Shown here piece after piece: positions 1 through 6,829 of a stretch of 35,607 bases of DNA. Every line of letters starts with the position of its first letter. Position 1 is the first letter of the stretch. Made by a program: the position numbers and the translations under genes. The stretch covers positions 1 through 35,607 of the forward strand of contig JBFRWD010000080.1 of NCBI GenBank assembly GCA_051439425.1, in the 5' to 3' direction. The DNA comes from Synechococcus sp. Its GTDB lineage: Bacteria > Cyanobacteriota > Cyanobacteriia > Thermostichales > PCC-7336. Below the pieces are notes generated by a model that was not told where the DNA came from, searched no databases, and was given only the letters and a program-made list of their open reading frames with translations.

Positions 1-111
1 GGCACGACCACTAGAGGGAGCTTTGTTGAAGAACTATTCTTTGACGGAAGTCAGTATGGGCTACAAAGCAATGACATCTTTGCTGTAGATTCCACATTCA
101 ACGCTATTTAG
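1..111 (+). CDS. 3' end of a CDS entering from the left edge (…GSFVEELFFDGSQYGLQSNDIFAVDSTFNAI*), product unknown
   Basis: Frame +1 is open from base 1 to TAG at 109-111 with a protein-like translation; too short to assign. Confidence 0.4.
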   Translation, partial: GTTTRGSFVEELFFDGSQYGLQSNDIFAVDSTFNAI

Positions 112-374
112 TCTGACACCTGACTCGATTAGGGACCTATCTACTCACTTAGGGACAAAGGCGATCTCGCACCAAATTTTGATACGAGCACGCAGCATTT
201 GTCTTCTGTAGATGCTTGCCGACAGAAAATGCCGTCGGGGACAGAAGTGAGTTCTGATAGGTTCAAAGGCAGATCAAAACCTCTGACGATAAACCGTTGA
301 GATGAATCGCGTCATCGGACGCTCTCGATATCTAGTGGGTTCGTGAGACGCGTCTTCCCGTTAGAAAACACGAC

Positions 375-630
375 TCAATTCAACTCAAACACTCTTTCCA
401 ACACAGCCAGTGACTCCTGGCTGATGTAGCTATCGGGAACCAAGACCTTTGGAACGCGAATCAACTGCGATCGCATCTTCTGAATCACCCCTTTCACCAC
501 CTCCACACTCGATCGCCCACACACAATCAACTGCGCCCGCTGCACAACAGTCCTCAACTGCACGTCATCATCCGACGTCGCTGACAGCATCAACAAGTTA
601 TCCCCGTGCCGACTCGTTAGCACCACTTTG
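375..630 (-). pseudogene. Duplicated 3' fragment of the plmA-like GntR gene, with no 5' end
   Basis: 394-630 matches 4666-4902 with 6 mismatches in 237 bp, and the stop codons align (375 vs 4647, offset 4272). The track ORF's N-terminus (MCAQNQPDN) comes from the adjacent IS1 remnant. Confidence 0.9.
394..630. repeat. Direct repeat copy 1 (left island boundary)
   Basis: Base-by-base comparison with 4666-4902; constant offset of 4272. Confidence 0.95.
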
Positions 631-934
631 TTGTCGGGCTGATTTTGAGCACACAAACAGAATCGCGGATTCCACTCCCCTTCATTGCCAGATCCAGAAT
701 TTGCTCTTTGCTCTCTGCAGGATAGCCTCGGTTGACATAGTCACGGATGAACGTAATCGAGGGCAATCTGCATTTCGACATCGGCATCATGCTTGCCTTC
801 GGCTGAATAGCAATGTTTGACTACATTGGTCTTGTGGCAGCAGGGACACTGGACAGTGTCTAAAATCATTGGCCAGTCGTAATCCTCTACGGCCCTCTCA
901 GTTTGGACTACATCCATAGACTTAGAGAACTACC
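631..934 (-). mobile_element. insA: Decayed, truncated IS1-family element (putative left end plus insA remnant)
   Basis: The minus strand from ATG at 869 reads MILDTVQCPCCHKTNVVKHCYSAEGK /fs/ CRCRNADCPR /fs/ TFIRDYVNRGYPAESKEQILDLAMKGSGIRDSVCVLKISPT. This gives an InsA zinc finger plus the GSGIRD…VLKISPT HTH, with two frameshifts. An IS1-like GGTAGTTCTC end starts at 934 (minus). No insB or right end seen. Confidence 0.8.
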
Positions 935-955
935 ACTTTAATTTGGAGCAAGGAT

Positions 956-1228
956 ATGTATGTAACAGCGATCCTGCAGCTTGCCGTAGCCCAAGAACTG
1001 CATCAACAGCAGCCCAGACTGGCGGCCTCCGAACAGCTCATACAGCTAGCTCAAGAACTCAACGTCCTATTGGAACCTTTACACCCAGGTGAGACCGATC
1101 CATATCTGGTTCCCTATTTCAAAGTAGAAGTCCCTGACCAAACAACAGCAGATCGGGTAATCTTCCATTTCCAAACTCTAGATGCTATCGAAGGAGCCTA
1201 TATAAAACCATCAGCAGAACTGCCTTAG
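956..1228 (+). CDS. Small protein resembling a stand-alone subtilase propeptide (I9-like inhibitor/chaperone, inferred)
   Basis: ATG has GGAG/AAGGA upstream. EPL…PYLVPYFKVEVPD…IEGAYIKPSAELP aligns by eye with EPL…PDLSVFYRVHAAD…IEAAYVKPAVALA in the prodomain of the neighbouring S8 protease. Confidence 0.75.
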   Translation: MYVTAILQLAVAQELHQQQPRLAASEQLIQLAQELNVLLEPLHPGETDPYLVPYFKVEVPDQTTADRVIFHFQTLDAIEGAYIKPSAELP

Positions 1229-1626
1229 GAAATACCTGGACAGTACACCAGAGGTCCAAATGACGGGCCGTTACACTGATTGCAGGTTCTACACCCGTTT
1301 GCTAAGAGTAATCCTCAACGCCCCTCTCAGCTTGGCCCATATCCACAGACCGAGAACATTCCCCAGGAAGATCGGAAAATAGTCAAAGCTGGTTTATTAC
1401 AAAATCTTCAAAACCTTATACGCGGATCGTCGTATTGCGTTCCAAGATCCATTTCCGCGAATATGTATCTGAGAAGATTGCTTGGCACTGACTCTACCAA
1501 AGAACCTTCGATACAGAGACAAAGGGAATAGCTGTCTAAGAAAAGGACAAGCACCTTATAAAAATAGGTTTTTTCCTTTTATTAGACATAAAAGTAGCGT
1601 CGATTCTTATAAAGATTCGGTTGAAA

Positions 1627-1664
1627 GTGAGCTGGAAATTTTTCCAAAAAAGTTTCCAGCTCAC
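1627..1664. promoter_or_regulatory. Long inverted repeat upstream of the S8 protease
   Basis: GTGAGCTGGAAA (1627-1638) and TTTCCAGCTCAC (1653-1664) are perfect arms, extendable to 17 bp with one U-G pair around a CCAA loop. Confidence 0.5.
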
Positions 1665-1798
1665 CTTCCAATGAATCTCTCAAAAGGATGGATGGCTAGC
1701 ATTGCTGGTTCCCGGAGAGCTCAAATCCCAATCGCAATACATCGAATCAGGCACGGCAGAATCTCTCAAAGGAAAGTGAAGACAAAAGAGGTTTCATA

Positions 1799-3553
1799 AT
1801 GACGAACACAGTCAATAATCCTTTGGTTTCAGAAGAATTACCAATGGAAAGGGAACTGATCTTGATCGCAAAGCGCGAAGCTGAACTAAGAGTTAGCCGA
1901 GAGGGAGTAACCTCCACCACAAGTGATGTTTTACCCCTAACCAGCCTGCTTGAGATAGAGGACGCAACGATAGAGCCCCTCTTTGGGGATACTGAGGCAC
2001 GACTCCAACTGGAGGCCGAATCTCTGGCTTCAGAAACGAATGAAAACGTGCCAGACTTATCAGTTTTCTATCGAGTGCATGCTGCCGATGACCGACTAGA
2101 TGAACTGGCCAGCCGTTTAAGCGGTCAGGAAATGATAGAAGCTGCCTACGTGAAACCAGCGGTTGCCCTAGCGGTGATGGCTGGAGAAGTAGCTGAAGAG
2201 GCCGTTGAAGAGGAAGCGATTGAATTTGGCGAAGTCCTCAACGATCTGATGCCTGCAGAAGCAGAAGCACCACCAGCAACCCCTAATTTTACGAATCGCC
2301 AGGGATACCTGAATAGAGCCCCAGAGGGTATTGATGCGAAATATGCCTGGACCCGGCCCGGTGGTAGCGGCAAAGGGGTTTGCATCGTTGATATTGAAGG
2401 GGCTTGGCGATTCGATCATGAAGACTTGAGGCAAAATCAAGGAGGTGTCATTGGGGGTACACCTACCAGCGATCGGTCCTGGCGCAACCACGGTACCGCA
2501 GTCATCGGAGAATTTGGCGCTGACCGTAATGCCTTCGGCTGTACAGGGATTTCGCCCGATGCTCGCGTACGAGGTGTTTCGATTTTTGGTGGAATGGGAA
2601 CTGCCGGAGCCATACGCCATTCTGCTAACTCCTCAAAACCGGGCGACATCATCCTGATCGAACTCCAGCGAGGAGGGCCCCGCAGTCGATATCTGCCTCT
2701 AGAGTTTTGGCCCGATGACTTTGCAGCGATTCGCTATGCCGTCACCAAGGGGGTCATTATTGTCGAAGCCGGCGGAAACGGTGGCGAGAACTTGGATCAC
2801 CCCCTCTACAACAATCGACCGAACGGATTCCCTCGCTCGTGGAAAAATCCATTTAATCCAGCCAACCCAAATTCAGGGGCAGTAATGGTAGGCGCTGGAG
2901 CACCACCACCTGGGACCCACGGTAGAAACCACGGACCAGATCGATCCAGATTAGGTTTTTCTAATTATGGAAGACGTGTGGATTGTCAGGGTTGGGGCCG
3001 TGAAGTAACTACTGCAGGGTACGGCGATCTCCAAGGCGGAAGCAGTGAGAATCTGTGGTATACCGACCAATTTAGCGGTACTTCCAGTGCATCTCCAATT
3101 GTTGTTGGAGCACTAGCCTGCGTCCAAGGGGTGTTGCGAGCCCACGGTAGGATTCCGTTGAGTCCTGCCCGGGCGAGGCATTTACTCCGGATTACAGGTT
3201 CACCCCAACAGGATGCCCCCGGACGGCCAAGGACGCAGCGAATTGGTAAACGTCCTAATCTACGTCAGCTGATTCCCTATGCATTGCAAACAAGGGAATG
3301 GGTCGGTGTTCAGTTCCATGGGAAGATTGCCGCCGGTCAAACCAAACGCTGGTTTACTTGGGGTTGGCCAGCCCACTGGCATGTAGTTTGGACAGTGGTA
3401 CCGGTGACGCCGAAACGAGGAGGTCCCCAGATTAAGTGGGAGGTACAAGTCGAGCGGGCATCTGACGATCGCATCACCTACTGGATCGATATCTCTAACG
3501 TCAGTTCGGAAGAGGTGAATATCGAGGCCCGCTATGCCGTACAAGGATGGTAA
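1799..3553 (+). CDS. S8 (subtilisin-like) serine peptidase with N-terminal prodomain and Trp-rich C-terminal domain
   Basis: Catalytic motifs IVD198IEG, NH231GTAV, oxyanion AGGN327G and GTS429SASP. GAGGT RBS; no signal peptide; extra ~84-aa C-terminal domain. Confidence 0.93.
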   Translation: MTNTVNNPLVSEELPMERELILIAKREAELRVSREGVTSTTSDVLPLTSLLEIEDATIEPLFGDTEARLQLEAESLASETNENVPDLSVFYRVHAADDRLDELASRLSGQEMIEAAYVKPAVALAVMAGEVAEEAVEEEAIEFGEVLNDLMPAEAEAPPATPNFTNRQGYLNRAPEGIDAKYAWTRPGGSGKGVCIVDIEGAWRFDHEDLRQNQGGVIGGTPTSDRSWRNHGTAVIGEFGADRNAFGCTGISPDARVRGVSIFGGMGTAGAIRHSANSSKPGDIILIELQRGGPRSRYLPLEFWPDDFAAIRYAVTKGVIIVEAGGNGGENLDHPLYNNRPNGFPRSWKNPFNPANPNSGAVMVGAGAPPPGTHGRNHGPDRSRLGFSNYGRRVDCQGWGREVTTAGYGDLQGGSSENLWYTDQFSGTSSASPIVVGALACVQGVLRAHGRIPLSPARARHLLRITGSPQQDAPGRPRTQRIGKRPNLRQLIPYALQTREWVGVQFHGKIAAGQTKRWFTWGWPAHWHVVWTVVPVTPKRGGPQIKWEVQVERASDDRITYWIDISNVSSEEVNIEARYAVQGW

Positions 3554-3960
3554 AGGAGACTGTGAAAATGCGCATTATCATTGAAACAGAAGGTGATGCA
3601 GTGGCTCCGGCCATAAAGGTTGAGAACGCTAATGATGTCAAGGTGATAGACGCGGGTTCTCCACCTCAGTATCTGCTTCAGCTAACGGCAGAACAATTGG
3701 CTGGGAGAGACAATGCCCCTGCCTCGGAAGATGCAATCGATGCTGGACCTCCCTCGCCAAGCTTAGAGGCTGCTTTTCGAGCAGTTGCCTCACTCAACTC
3801 CGAGCTAGATGAAGAAACGGCTGATTTGGCGATCGCTGACGGTGGTGGGATGGTGCCGGATTTTCCTCCACCTTTAGTGGTTTCTGAGGCCAAGGAGGTA
3901 TCGCCAACTACTGACGTAGAAGATGCCATAGATGCGGGCTCGCCTCGCCAACGGCTATAG
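3547..3960 (+). CDS. Acidic Ala/Pro/Asp-rich protein with repeated IDAG(S/P)P motifs (probable start ATG 3568)
   Basis: Overlaps or abuts the S8 stop; AAGGAG at 3553-3558 lies 9 nt before ATG 3568. Motifs VIDAGSPP, EDAIDAGPP, IADGGG and EDAIDAGSP. Confidence 0.8.
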   Translation: MVKETVKMRIIIETEGDAVAPAIKVENANDVKVIDAGSPPQYLLQLTAEQLAGRDNAPASEDAIDAGPPSPSLEAAFRAVASLNSELDEETADLAIADGGGMVPDFPPPLVVSEAKEVSPTTDVEDAIDAGSPRQRL

Positions 3961-4646
3961 GATACCTCGCAGCTCGCGACGACCGAAGGAGGAGTGGTTC
4001 ACATCCTAGAGACCTAAACAGACCTGGGGTGGGTGTTCCTATCATTGTTTGGCTTTAATATCCACACGCCAGTATGGTTTAGCAGCTCGCTATACTATCT
4101 GGTTCGATCGCACCCACCCTTTGCTAACCAGACGTAGGTACGGAGGAAGCTACTTTCATACCTTTCTACAGCAGTGCGTTCCTCTCGGATACTGGTTCCA
4201 CCGAATTGGTCCGCAGAACTATTTTCTGATGAGGGATGTAGCAAACGCTAGCAAAAGCAATATACGGACTCAGCCCTGCAACCCCTCCAATATGAGGAAT
4301 TAACCAGAAACTCGAACGACTAATGCCCGTATTTGGGTGATTAACAACATAGATATCGGTTTAACAATCGAATAGTGGCTACTACTTGCTATGTCACGCT
4401 CCATAACTTGGAGGGCTCTACACACCATTCCAAACCTGGACAAGCTACAGGTATAGCGAGTGATAAGGGAACGAAAGCAATCAACCATTGAGCTGGTAAA
4501 CGAGAGCTGGCAACAACTGAACAACAAACCATCGAGTGCTTCGACGACTCAATGAGATTGTCGGATCGCTTTCGGTTAGCACTATTCCCAGTTGGCAATT
4601 GAGACTGTGAGTTGGTTGCTCGAAGGGCTGACTTTAGAATGCTCCG

Positions 4647-5636
4647 TCAATCCAAGACAAGTGCCCTTTCCAACACAGCCAGTGACTCCTGACTGATGTA
4701 GCTATCGGGAACCAAGACCTTTGGAGCGCGAATCAACTGAGATCGCATCTTCTGAATCACCCCTTTCACCACCTCCACACTCGATCGCCCACACACAATC
4801 AACTGCGCTCGCCGCACAACAGTCCTCAACTGCACGTCATCATCCGGCGTCGCTGACAGCATCAACAAGTTATCCCCGTGCCGACTCGTTAGCACCACTT
4901 TGGCCACCTGCAATACCTCCGGGCTAATCGACACCAAGCCCACGCAGCTATTGGGGTCGAGGTGACCGATCGCCTCAATCTCCTGCTCGTACCGATTTAC
5001 ATCCACCGCGATCGCTCGCGCCCCATACTCCGCCGCCACCGCCTCCACCGGCTGCAAATAATATCGAGTGGTCAACAGCGTCACCGACGGGTTCTCCTCC
5101 AACACTGGTGCAAGATTTTCCAGCGCGATTGCCTGCACCGACAGCCCTAACTCCTGCATCAGCTCGTATGTCATCAGACGCCCCACCCCCTCCTGTTCCA
5201 GAGGCACCGTCACAATCGCCTGCGCGCCACACTGCTGCCGCCAATCAATCGCCTCTACCATCAGCGATCGCACCTGAGCCAGCGAATATCCCAACCGACT
5301 CAATCCATCAATCGCCTCCCGCACAATCCCCCGTGCCTTAGCCAAACTGCCCTCACAGTCTGCCGATTCAGAATTAGGAGTCGCTCTCGTTCCCTCCTCT
5401 CGCACATACATCCCCGAACCCGCTCGCGCCTCAATCAGCCCTTCTTTTTCTAGATGAGAGTAGACCCGCGTAATCGTGTTGCGGTGCAGTCCCGTTTGCA
5501 TAGCTAACTGCCGAGTACTGGGTAGACGACTGCCGGGGGCGACTTGCTTAGAAGCGATCGCGAATCCAATTTGGCTGGTCAATTGCTGCGATGCTGGAAT
5601 CTCGCTATCGGGCTGAATATAAAACTTGGGAATCAT
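4647..5636 (-). CDS. plmA: GntR-family transcriptional regulator, cyanobacterial PlmA subfamily
   Basis: wHTH …PASQQLTSQIGFAIAS…GSRLPSTRQLAMQTGLHRNTITRVYSHLE…AGSGMYV; ~330 aa with a PlmA-type C-terminal domain. Confidence 0.85.
   Translation of the reverse strand: MIPKFYIQPDSEIPASQQLTSQIGFAIASKQVAPGSRLPSTRQLAMQTGLHRNTITRVYSHLEKEGLIEARAGSGMYVREEGTRATPNSESADCEGSLAKARGIVREAIDGLSRLGYSLAQVRSLMVEAIDWRQQCGAQAIVTVPLEQEGVGRLMTYELMQELGLSVQAIALENLAPVLEENPSVTLLTTRYYLQPVEAVAAEYGARAIAVDVNRYEQEIEAIGHLDPNSCVGLVSISPEVLQVAKVVLTSRHGDNLLMLSATPDDDVQLRTVVRRAQLIVCGRSSVEVVKGVIQKMRSQLIRAPKVLVPDSYISQESLAVLERALVLD
4666..4902. repeat. Direct repeat copy 2 (inside the plmA 3' end; right island boundary)
   Basis: Matches 394-630. 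Confidence 0.95.
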
Positions 5637-5659
5637 GGCCGACTGCCGAGTAACAAGGA

Positions 5660-6829
5660 TTAAGCAGGCACGCTCGCCGGAAATTTTGGATGGGCGATCG
5701 TACGTCCAGAATCCCCATCAAACAGATGCAAGCGATCTCGATTCAGCGTCCACCCCACCTGCTCCCCCGTTCGATAACCCAACTCTGGAGCCACACTAAC
5801 TTGAACCTTAGTCTCTCCCCGATCTAAATCCGTTTCCCCTAAATCGGTTACCACTAATGTCTGTGCCCCCAGCACTTCAACCACCTCAACGGTTCCCACC
5901 ACATCAGCGGTTTCCACACTGCCCGGCATCGCCCGCTCCGGTCGAAATCCCAACATCAATGGGCGATCGCGAGCGACTACCTGGCGCATCTCCCAATTGG
6001 GCGGAACTGGTAACGGCTTGCGCAGATGCTGACCCACCAGCAATCCCTCTGGGTCGAGCGTCACGGGAATCAGATTCATGGGAGGCGACCCAATAAACTG
6101 GGCCACAAACGTATTCGCGGGTCGCCGATACAAATTCAGCGGAGTATCCACCTGCTGCAGGTGGCCGTCCTTCAGCACCACAATCCGATCGCCCATCGTC
6201 ATTGCTTCCACCTGATCGTGGGTGACGTACATCGCTGTGGTGCCCAACTGCCGCTGCAATTGCACAATCTGCGATCGGGTCTCTACTCGCAACTGAGCAT
6301 CCAAATTCGACAGCGGCTCATCTAACAGAAAGACCTGGGGATTGCGCGCCATTGCCCGCCCCAACGCCACACGCTGCTTTTGCCCTCCCGATAATTCCTT
6401 CGGCTTGCGCCACAAGTAACGTTCGATCTGAAGCTGTTCGGCGATCGTTCTCACCTGTCGATCGATCGCCTGCCGACGCTTGCGCCCCGTCGCCGACAGC
6501 GGATTCATCACCCGCCTCCCCTGTCGCCGCAGTCCAAACGCCAAATTGTTGTACACACTCAGATGGGGATACAGCGCGTAGTTCTGAAACACCATGGCAA
6601 TATCCCGTTGCTTTGGCGGGAGCTGGGTGACGGAGCGATCGCCGATGGCTATCTCTCCAGCAGTCGGGAACTCCAACCCAGCCACAATTCGTAGCAGCGT
6701 GCTCTTGCCACAACCCGAGGGACCAACCAATACCATAAACTCGCGATCGCGAATCTCAAGGTCAATCGAGTGCAATGCCGTAGTGTTGCCAAACTGCTTC
6801 TGAATTCCAGCCAGCTTTACGGATGCCAT
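5660..6829 (-). CDS. Carbohydrate ABC transporter ATP-binding protein (MalK/UgpC family)
   Basis: Walker A GPSGCGKS, VFQNYALYPH, signature LSGGQKQR, Walker B LLDEPLSNLD, YVTHDQ, and a C-terminal TOBE-like region. Confidence 0.93.
   Translation of the reverse strand: MASVKLAGIQKQFGNTTALHSIDLEIRDREFMVLVGPSGCGKSTLLRIVAGLEFPTAGEIAIGDRSVTQLPPKQRDIAMVFQNYALYPHLSVYNNLAFGLRRQGRRVMNPLSATGRKRRQAIDRQVRTIAEQLQIERYLWRKPKELSGGQKQRVALGRAMARNPQVFLLDEPLSNLDAQLRVETRSQIVQLQRQLGTTAMYVTHDQVEAMTMGDRIVVLKDGHLQQVDTPLNLYRRPANTFVAQFIGSPPMNLIPVTLDPEGLLVGQHLRKPLPVPPNWEMRQVVARDRPLMLGFRPERAMPGSVETADVVGTVEVVEVLGAQTLVVTDLGETDLDRGETKVQVSVAPELGYRTGEQVGWTLNRDRLHLFDGDSGRTIAHPKFPASVPA

Follow-up and report, generated by a model that had tools for sequence, protein, structure and literature searches.

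The window analysed here is a stretch of 35,607 nucleotides (nt) of a Synechococcus sp. genome (assembly GCA_051439425.1, contig JBFRWD010000080.1). Close to its left end, it carries a small protease gene module on the plus strand. The first gene encodes a stand-alone prodomain-like protein of 90 amino acids (956..1228), the second a leaderless protease of the S8 (subtilase) family with 584 amino acids (1799..3553), which is composed of a prodomain, a catalytic domain, and a C-terminal domain. The third gene, the subject of this study, encodes an acidic, disordered protein of 130 amino acids (P0001; 3568..3960, plus strand, stop codon TAG at 3958-3960) and starts 14 nt after the stop codon of the protease gene. 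It had been noticed in a sequence-only reading as an open reading frame (ORF) at 3547..3960 (+) with recurring IDAG(S/P)P motifs. The ORF is real, but its start was revised. The ATG at 3568 is most likely the true start codon, because the distant relatives all begin with M(R/K)I and a ribosome-binding site (AAGGAG, 3553..3558, +) is situated 9 nt ahead of it; GGAG-type sites also precede the M(R/K)I start in 11 out of 11 other loci. The ATG at 3547 overlaps the stop codon of the protease gene and is probably not used as a start.

The N-terminus MRIIIETE (3568..3591, +) is a presumed beta-strand and the most conserved element of the protein. It is followed by three clear copies and one degenerate copy of the motif, all of them at the positions given in the sequence-only reading. 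Copy 1 (VIDAGSPP, residues 26-33, nt 3643-3666) together with a predicted helix (residues 34-45) covers 3643..3702. Copy 2 (AIDAGPPSP, residues 56-64, nt 3733-3759) leads into a second predicted helix (residues 64-83; 3733..3816). The degenerate copy 3 (IADGGG, residues 89-94, nt 3832-3849) is followed by a conserved DFPPP at 3859-3873 (3832..3873 in total), and copy 4 (AIDAGSP, residues 120-126) is located at 3925..3945. The distances between the copies are 30, 33, and 31 residues, in line with the spacing of about 30 residues reported before. The copies use different codons (GAC GCG GGT, GAT GCT GGA, GAC GGT GGT, and GAT GCG GGC), and direct DNA repeats were not detected inside the gene, except for a 27-nt match of 70% to nt 6355, which is chance-like. 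The varied codons and the recurrence of the motif in homologues bear out the claim that it is kept at the protein level and not by DNA slippage. A 4-mer present three times, as in the acidic protein, was equalled in 34 out of 20,000 composition-preserving shuffles. With 25 acidic and 8 basic residues (net charge -17), the protein is acidic, as had been stated.

Judging from its sequence, the acidic protein is a member of an unnamed cross-phylum family, which is designated 'MRIIIE/DAGxPP' here. A search of 5.8 billion proteins yielded three close relatives (72-91% identity), and a profile search over 1.84 billion representatives added three distant ones (E 2e-6 to 5e-4). With a broader profile (A2), 39 proteins with E<=0.1 were obtained among 8000 candidates scored, each of them 82-158 amino acids long. 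The family also occurs outside the cyanobacteria, namely in Lysobacterales, Saprospiraceae, and metagenomes. The acidic protein had no match in Pfam, NCBIfam, or PADLOC (each at E<=1) or in PHROGs (E<=0.01), the members P0010, P0015, and P0037 matched no curated family beyond noise, and the best hit of a sequence profile search of the PDB with the family had an E-value of 1.1. In the ESM Atlas, the acidic protein and the free form of the C-terminal domain described below fell into unnamed clusters only. Literature queries with the motif string and with keywords for subtilase partners retrieved no description of the family, which is not proof of its absence from the literature.

The motif was counted with a permissive pattern in 46 family sequences (41 proteins and 5 sequences translated from loci). 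It is present at least once in all 46, in one to four copies, and 22 sequences, including a whole clade, contain a single copy. The recurring motif first seen in the window is thus a genuine feature of the family. The logo of 80 instances reads (E/D)(A/V)(I/V/L)-D-A-G-(P/A/S)-P-(S/P)-(E/Q)-x-L-(L/V)-Q-(S/A/L)-(L/I/M), and the motif is still conserved at about 20-30% identity among homologues. The N-terminal consensus is M-(R/K)-(I/V)-x-I-E, in which M1 and E6 are invariant and I5 is nearly so (38 sequences). Besides this N-terminus and at least one motif, the family is marked by a strongly acidic composition, predicted disorder with a helix behind each motif, and a gene position directly after a gene for the C-terminal domain described below. 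Among the relatives with 72-91% identity, none of the eight columns of the strand and none of the motif cores vary, compared to about half of the linker columns. In many members, the last DAG(A/P)AP is located near the C-terminus; the Lysobacterales clade ends with SRH instead.

An AlphaFold2 (AF2) model of the acidic protein based on 38 sequences had a mean predicted local distance difference test (pLDDT) value of 64 and a predicted template modelling (pTM) score of 0.23 and contained only the helices 34-45 and 64-83, each of which begins right after a motif. The protein does not form an ordinary globular domain. The presumed N-terminal strand was absent from the monomer model. According to the model, the repeat unit is a predicted IDAGxPP turn followed by an amphipathic helix, embedded in an acidic disordered chain. 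An origin of the acidic gene as a degenerate copy of the C-terminal domain or of the prodomain was ruled out by profile-profile comparison, which showed no relation (hhalign of acidic family A3 against prodomain family A7: probability 0.1%, E 0.47). A propeptide of the I9 type was dismissed as well, given the missing profile relation to the prodomain and the lack of a beta-alpha-beta fold in the AF2 model.

The protease encoded upstream belongs to Pfam family PF00082 (46.1 bits, cut-off 21.8), with the catalytic domain at residues 219-466. The sequences around the catalytic Asp, His, and Ser (VDIEG, NHGTAV, and SGTSSASP) are kept in 16 aligned relatives. In NCBIfam, only a sub-threshold match to mycosin was obtained (43 bits, cut-off 279) and no cyanobactin protease model was matched. 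Solved subtilisins are only distantly related (best E 2e-8), with intracellular subtilisins among the matches (E 4e-8 to 1e-5), and no signal peptide was discernible by eye. The C-terminal domain (3284..3550, +) comprises about 85 residues and is rich in Trp and His. Its sequence frame is WVGVQF..WFTWGWPAHWHVVW..TYWI..ARYAVQGW, and W23, W28, H33, W36, Y66, and W67 are invariant or nearly so. AF2 predicts a six-strand beta sandwich of the jelly-roll type (pLDDT 87, pTM 0.76). The domain matches no Pfam family, and Foldseek retrieved nothing at E<=1e-3. VIA-align returned a GOLD domain (Z 8.5), YPM (8.2), the jelly roll of Tk-SP (7.8), and KP-43 (6.5), all at a level which the tool deems typical of models without a true match.

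Loci related to the window were obtained from genome contigs, metagenomes, and the complete genome of a cultured Haliscomenobacter (G504, a single contig of 8.37 Mb with an intact module, locus L037). The gene order of the module is prodomain-like gene, S8 gene with fused C-terminal domain, an optional gene for a free C-terminal domain, and the acidic gene. In all 14 loci, the acidic gene is located directly 3' of a gene ending with the C-terminal domain. The 14 loci are the window, 11 measured loci, L020, which shows the end of the domain in its first 180 nt, and L037; they represent about 12 distinct sequences, because L018, L019, and L020 are copies of one sequence. The gap is 10-61 nt long in the window and the 11 measured loci. 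Genes for a free C-terminal domain between the protease and the acidic gene were detected in L014, L015 (a frameshifted assembly), L017, L018/L019, and L037 (9834-10088). The proteases of L014, L015, and L037 are of another S8 subfamily (Pfam E 2e-27 to 8e-30) and have a different prodomain; nonetheless, the same C-terminal domain is fused to them and is accompanied by a free copy and by the acidic gene. None of the 10 related S8 loci lacking the C-terminal domain (L002-L006, L008-L011, L013) contained an ORF of the MRIIIE type; L005 and L008 are weak negatives, because these loci end close to the S8 gene. The catalytic domains of seven aligned loci of this group are 49-54% identical to that of the window. 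Their C-terminal modules are of other kinds, a coiled-coil tail on a linker rich in Lys and Glu in six of them and W-rich repeats in L003.

The distribution of the acidic gene and the C-terminal domain was followed in genome samples of four taxonomic scopes. Both profiles, that of the acidic family and that of the C-terminal domain, matched the same single genome among 401 of the window's phylum, which is the window's own, and the same two among 12 genomes of the genus Haliscomenobacter. Among 201 genomes of the order Lysobacterales, the C-terminal domain was found in the starting genome only, and among 81 genomes of the Haliscomenobacter family the acidic profile matched only the starting genome. 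In six out of six genomes, the C-terminal domain is confined to the locus of the acidic gene. The acidic gene tracks the jelly-roll domain, not the catalytic lineage. A correspondence between the number of C-terminal domains per locus (one or two) and the number of motifs was considered and discarded, as none was found.

The loci without the jelly roll display features of their own. In L002, L004, L005, L006, L008, L009, and L011 (catalytic domain 49-53% identical), a linker rich in Lys and Glu stands in its place, together with a coiled coil and a conserved tail (..HFI(G/S)xELRPDLxxGAL..). Where the sequence continues, two genes follow, the second of which encodes an ATP-grasp protein of the RimK type (Pfam E 2e-9, L004). 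These loci appear to form a separate, undescribed S8 module, in which the protease tail is possibly the substrate of the ATP-grasp ligase. In L003 (3941-6304), a long C-terminal repeat array (..G.LWHTIRR.DG.W..FGDVEGQAGDRG..) takes the place of the jelly roll, so that the S8 catalytic module evidently combines with interchangeable C-terminal modules.

The copy of the acidic gene in the window is truncated. A premature TAG and the decayed remnant of a C-terminal tail cover 3958..4023 (+). At the position of the TAG, L016 (83% identical) reads TCG and continues for 21 further residues to TDGGAAPC; in P0003, P0004, and L016, the 21-24 extra C-terminal residues end with TDGGAAP(C). Past the TAG, 15 nt are deleted and 1 nt is inserted in the DNA of the window. 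P0002 (91% identity) ends at the same position as the window copy. Since a nonsense change removed the last motif and the surrounding island is decaying, the window copy may be impaired in this genome. Just 3' of the acidic gene, at about 2500-2560, L016 contains an inverted repeat (GGGGTGGATG-CGATCG-CACCCACCC), which may form a hairpin ending the operon. The arms of the same repeat are found in the window between 4020 and 4130 (about 4024-4035 and 4105-4119), where they are split by an insertion of about 69 nt. Contigs from RNA libraries omit this inserted stretch, too (joints 3972/3980 to 4080/4101).

The first gene of the module (956..1228, +), whose product ends with AYIKPSAELP, is a paralogue of the protease prodomain (BLASTP E 5e-4). 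In an alignment of 14 prodomain sequences, K119-P120 is invariant, and the stand-alone proteins stop 5-7 residues past this K-P. They end with KP-x-(D/E)-E-(L/P)-P, sometimes with two to three additional residues, and the corresponding sequence of the S8 proteases is KPPAEP(P/A). Both are faintly similar to DAGxPP, and a mimicry of this prodomain active-site tail by the motif was considered; the likeness is too short to count and serves as a lead only. The prodomain-like gene and the S8 gene abut in L018 and L022 and are separated by about 570 nt in the window (1229-1798). Within the spacer lies an inverted repeat of 31 nt (1613-1643/1648-1678), and short stretches of it at about 1383-1448 are found again in other parts of this genome and in a sister genome. 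It is possibly an insertion resembling a miniature inverted-repeat transposable element, which would uncouple the first gene. In the S8 gene itself, relatives of about 92% identity from three RNA-library runs have 108 other letters in place of an 87-nt piece (window 2898-2986). The exchange marks a surface segment of the protease that varies among relatives.

The module is located on a 4.3-kb island bracketed by direct repeats. The left copy (375..630) of the 256-nt repeat is a duplicate of the 3' end of a gene of the GntR family and is 95% identical to the right copy (4647..4902), which lies inside the intact GntR-family gene (4647..5636, -). In three out of three genomes of the same genus, the GntR-family gene is present with 67-84% identity and nothing matches 1799-3960. 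The arrangement resembles what an integrative element would leave behind, although no integrase remains here. At its left edge (617-917, -), two short ORFs with sub-threshold Pfam matches to the IS1 InsA zinc ribbon and a helix-turn-helix (E 2e-3 to 3e-3) are probably remnants of an IS1-type transposase. In L016, a tyrosine integrase is encoded 1.4 kb downstream of the module, and in L018 a transposase of an insertion sequence (IS) adjoins it. In G504, the module is flanked by a gene for an AraC-type regulator and by iscS-iscU-iscA. The module is rare, sporadic, and horizontally moving in several bacterial phyla. The far left of the window (1-354) is a dispersed repeat, further copies of which (74-93% identical) occur in the assembly at seven or more sites (contigs C72, twice, C177, C81, C178, C131, C5, and C108). 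Expression is weakly hinted at by contigs from RNA libraries of two studies, which contain a relative of about 91-93% identity, covering the region from within the S8 gene to shortly behind the acidic gene (X6 record 17, 2747 nt, window 1737-2898 and 2986-3980; X7 record 21, 2595-3980; X3 record 16, 3020-3972); the hint is weak because DNA may be present in libraries of this kind, and a contig need not correspond to one transcript. An Rfam scan of window positions 1-6000 detected no RNA family.

Because it is the jelly-roll domain, and not one certain catalytic domain, with which the acidic gene is coupled, we tentatively favour, at somewhat less than an even chance, the reading that the acidic protein is a dedicated disordered client of this domain, either a substrate or a regulator of the protease. 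The N-terminal strand MRIIIE, the linear motifs, or both would dock on the jelly-roll domain, each motif consisting of the (I/V)DAGxPP turn and the subsequent amphipathic helix xLLQxL. The conserved Trp/His-rich face of the domain is a plausible binding surface for the proline-containing motif. Once docked, the flexible acidic chain would reach the active site of the protease, where it might be cut as a substrate at or near the motifs, or might act as a regulator which restrains the cytoplasmic protease jointly with the prodomain paralogue. The sequence-only reading had suggested multivalent ligands for the C-terminal domain. The gene neighbourhood favours the ligand part of this proposal (14 out of 14 loci with the domain, 0 out of 10 without it), whereas multivalency is not a family constant.

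Several points weigh against this reading. The physical interaction of the two proteins, the surface involved, cleavage of the chain, and its role in the cell are the parts of it that we infer. The number of motifs is not fixed, and the internal copies of the Saprospiraceae clade are rather degenerate. The fold of the C-terminal domain is generic, its best structural matches (Z 8.5 for GOLD, 7.8 for Tk-SP) being at background level. Jelly rolls at the C-termini of subtilases could be purely structural, so that the neighbourhood alone could overstate a specific interaction. Fused forms of the acidic protein were not found among longer proteins, a search which the tool rates as weak evidence. 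In addition, the truncation of the window copy on an island with IS fragments makes its function in this genome uncertain. A single complex prediction job with S8 residues 159-584 and residues 1-50 of the acidic protein, each supplied as an alignment, gave interaction scores (ipSAE) of 0.28 and 0.29, compared to the tool's mark of 0.32, and counts neither way.

The acidic protein might instead be an inhibitor or an antitoxin-like regulator, which binds in the active-site cleft or at an exosite and silences the potentially self-harmful protease until the acidic chain is degraded, as in a conflict or addiction module. We consider this rather unlikely. It would fit the leaderless protease with intracellular subtilisins among its nearest solved relatives and the additional prodomain paralogue, which ends a few residues past the invariant K-P, as I9-type prodomains are known protease inhibitors. 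Most serine proteases cleave Pro-rich sites such as GxPP poorly, and the sporadic, island-borne occurrence (1/401, 2/12, and 1/201 genomes; 0/3 of the same genus), the integrase near the module of L016, and the IS beside that of L018 point in the same direction. However, PADLOC matched neither of the two proteins, the acidic family is unrelated to the prodomain family, and the G504 module between the regulator gene and the isc genes is not part of a defence island. Moreover, the acidic gene is the last one of the operon and is truncated in the window without an obvious loss of the S8 gene. A bolder reading is a self-contained protease system of a kind not described so far, in which the jelly roll is an exosite recruiting the leaderless disordered protein via the strand and the DAGxPP-helix motifs, and the protease either cuts it at the motifs into defined peptides or is freed upon its destruction; this is unlikely. 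If true, it would represent a new class of ribosomal peptide precursors free of tailoring in the case of peptides. In the case of release, it would be a conflict or addiction system of a new type, based on a protease and disseminated by horizontal transfer.

The other proposal of the sequence-only reading, cleavage or recognition sites flanking variable cores, corresponds to a ribosomal peptide precursor, from which the S8 protease would release several active peptides of about 30 residues at the repeated motifs, as in multi-core precursors of the cyanobactin or pheromone type. The alternation of conserved short motifs with more variable stretches, the regular spacing in the window clade, and a copy number that varies among relatives as in multi-cassette precursors are compatible with it, as is the S8 gene directly upstream in all 14 loci, if L019 and L020 are counted, for which only the free C-terminal domain gene is visible. 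Yet the one-motif clade speaks against cores between sites, and there is one motif type only, whereas cyanobactin cores have two distinct flanking sequences according to PMC4663559. The linkers are acidic, of low complexity, and about 50% variable among close relatives rather than hypervariable, the conserved helix after the motif makes this stretch part of the motif and not a free core, and a conserved pattern of Cys, Ser, or Thr is lacking. Neither a second protease nor a cyclodehydratase, ATP-grasp, or tailoring gene was found in the five loci with the best coverage (island of the window, L016, L018, and L022 by eye, L037 by Pfam), a signal peptide or export gene was not detected, and NCBIfam does not recognise the protease as PatA/PatG type. 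The proposal has little support and appears distinctly unlikely. An independent acidic protein, which is merely co-transcribed, for example as a DNA or protein mimic or as operon-linked filler, and does not interact with the protease, is very unlikely. The lack of a detectable relation to any known domain agrees with it, but strict adjacency and co-distribution with the C-terminal domain across at least three phyla and two S8 lineages are hard to explain without functional coupling.

Irrespective of the mechanism, the analysis reveals an unannotated protein family and a conserved protease module of three to four genes, in which a jelly-roll domain is paired with a disordered partner with up to four motifs. 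If the acidic protein is a client of the jelly-roll domain, the module would be a case of bacterial short-linear-motif recognition steering a subtilase to a dedicated client, and it would provide a function for a type of accessory domain that is common on subtilases and poorly understood. The intact module of G504 makes experiments feasible.

Among known systems, the cyanobactin precursor PatE with the proteases PatA and PatG is similar in that a small protein is encoded beside an S8 protease and a short motif occurs one to four times. As described in PMC4663559, cyanobactin clusters encode a pair of S8 proteases, A and G, which both contain a PatA/PatG domain of unknown function (DUF), precursors with hypervariable cores between distinct N- and C-terminal recognition sequences of 4-5 residues, and patB/patC-like genes, usually with a heterocyclase or prenyltransferase. 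In contrast, each locus described here has one S8 protease, one motif type in units of about 30 residues including a conserved helix, and no patB/C/D-like genes (window, L016, L018, and L022 by eye; L037 by Pfam). In the protease of the window, Pfam finds only Peptidase_S8 and no PatA/PatG DUF. Conserved genes other than those for the prodomain-like protein, the S8 protease, the C-terminal domain, and the acidic protein were not seen in these five loci. The family also occurs outside the cyanobacteria and in only one of the 401 genomes of the window's phylum. Membership in the cyanobactins was rejected, as the module departs from them in the three features that define them there (proteases, cores, and tailoring genes).

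Subtilisin propeptides and inhibitors of the I9 type have a counterpart in the module, namely the separate gene at 956-1228, which aligns to the S8 prodomain; the acidic protein differs from them, as it is unrelated by profile, disordered, and not of the beta-alpha-beta type. The xLLQxL stretch may resemble the 'ILELQ' leader motif of class III lanthipeptides, and no lanthipeptide synthetase gene was found near the module. Tk-SP (PDB 3afg) and KP-43 (PDB 1wmd) likewise carry an accessory C-terminal beta sandwich on an S8 protease, and VIA-align superimposed the C-terminal domain on Tk-SP 412-517 with Z 7.8, a background-level value, and a root-mean-square deviation of 2.7 over 80 residues. To our knowledge, no comparable acidic partner exists for either protease. 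Unlike these sandwiches, the domain described here has no Pfam match, can also be encoded separately by a gene of its own, and has the acidic gene behind it in every case. In the way it might work, the pair could be likened by analogy to SH3, WW, GYF, and EVH1 domains, in which a small domain rich in conserved aromatic residues meets a disordered partner with several xPP motifs.

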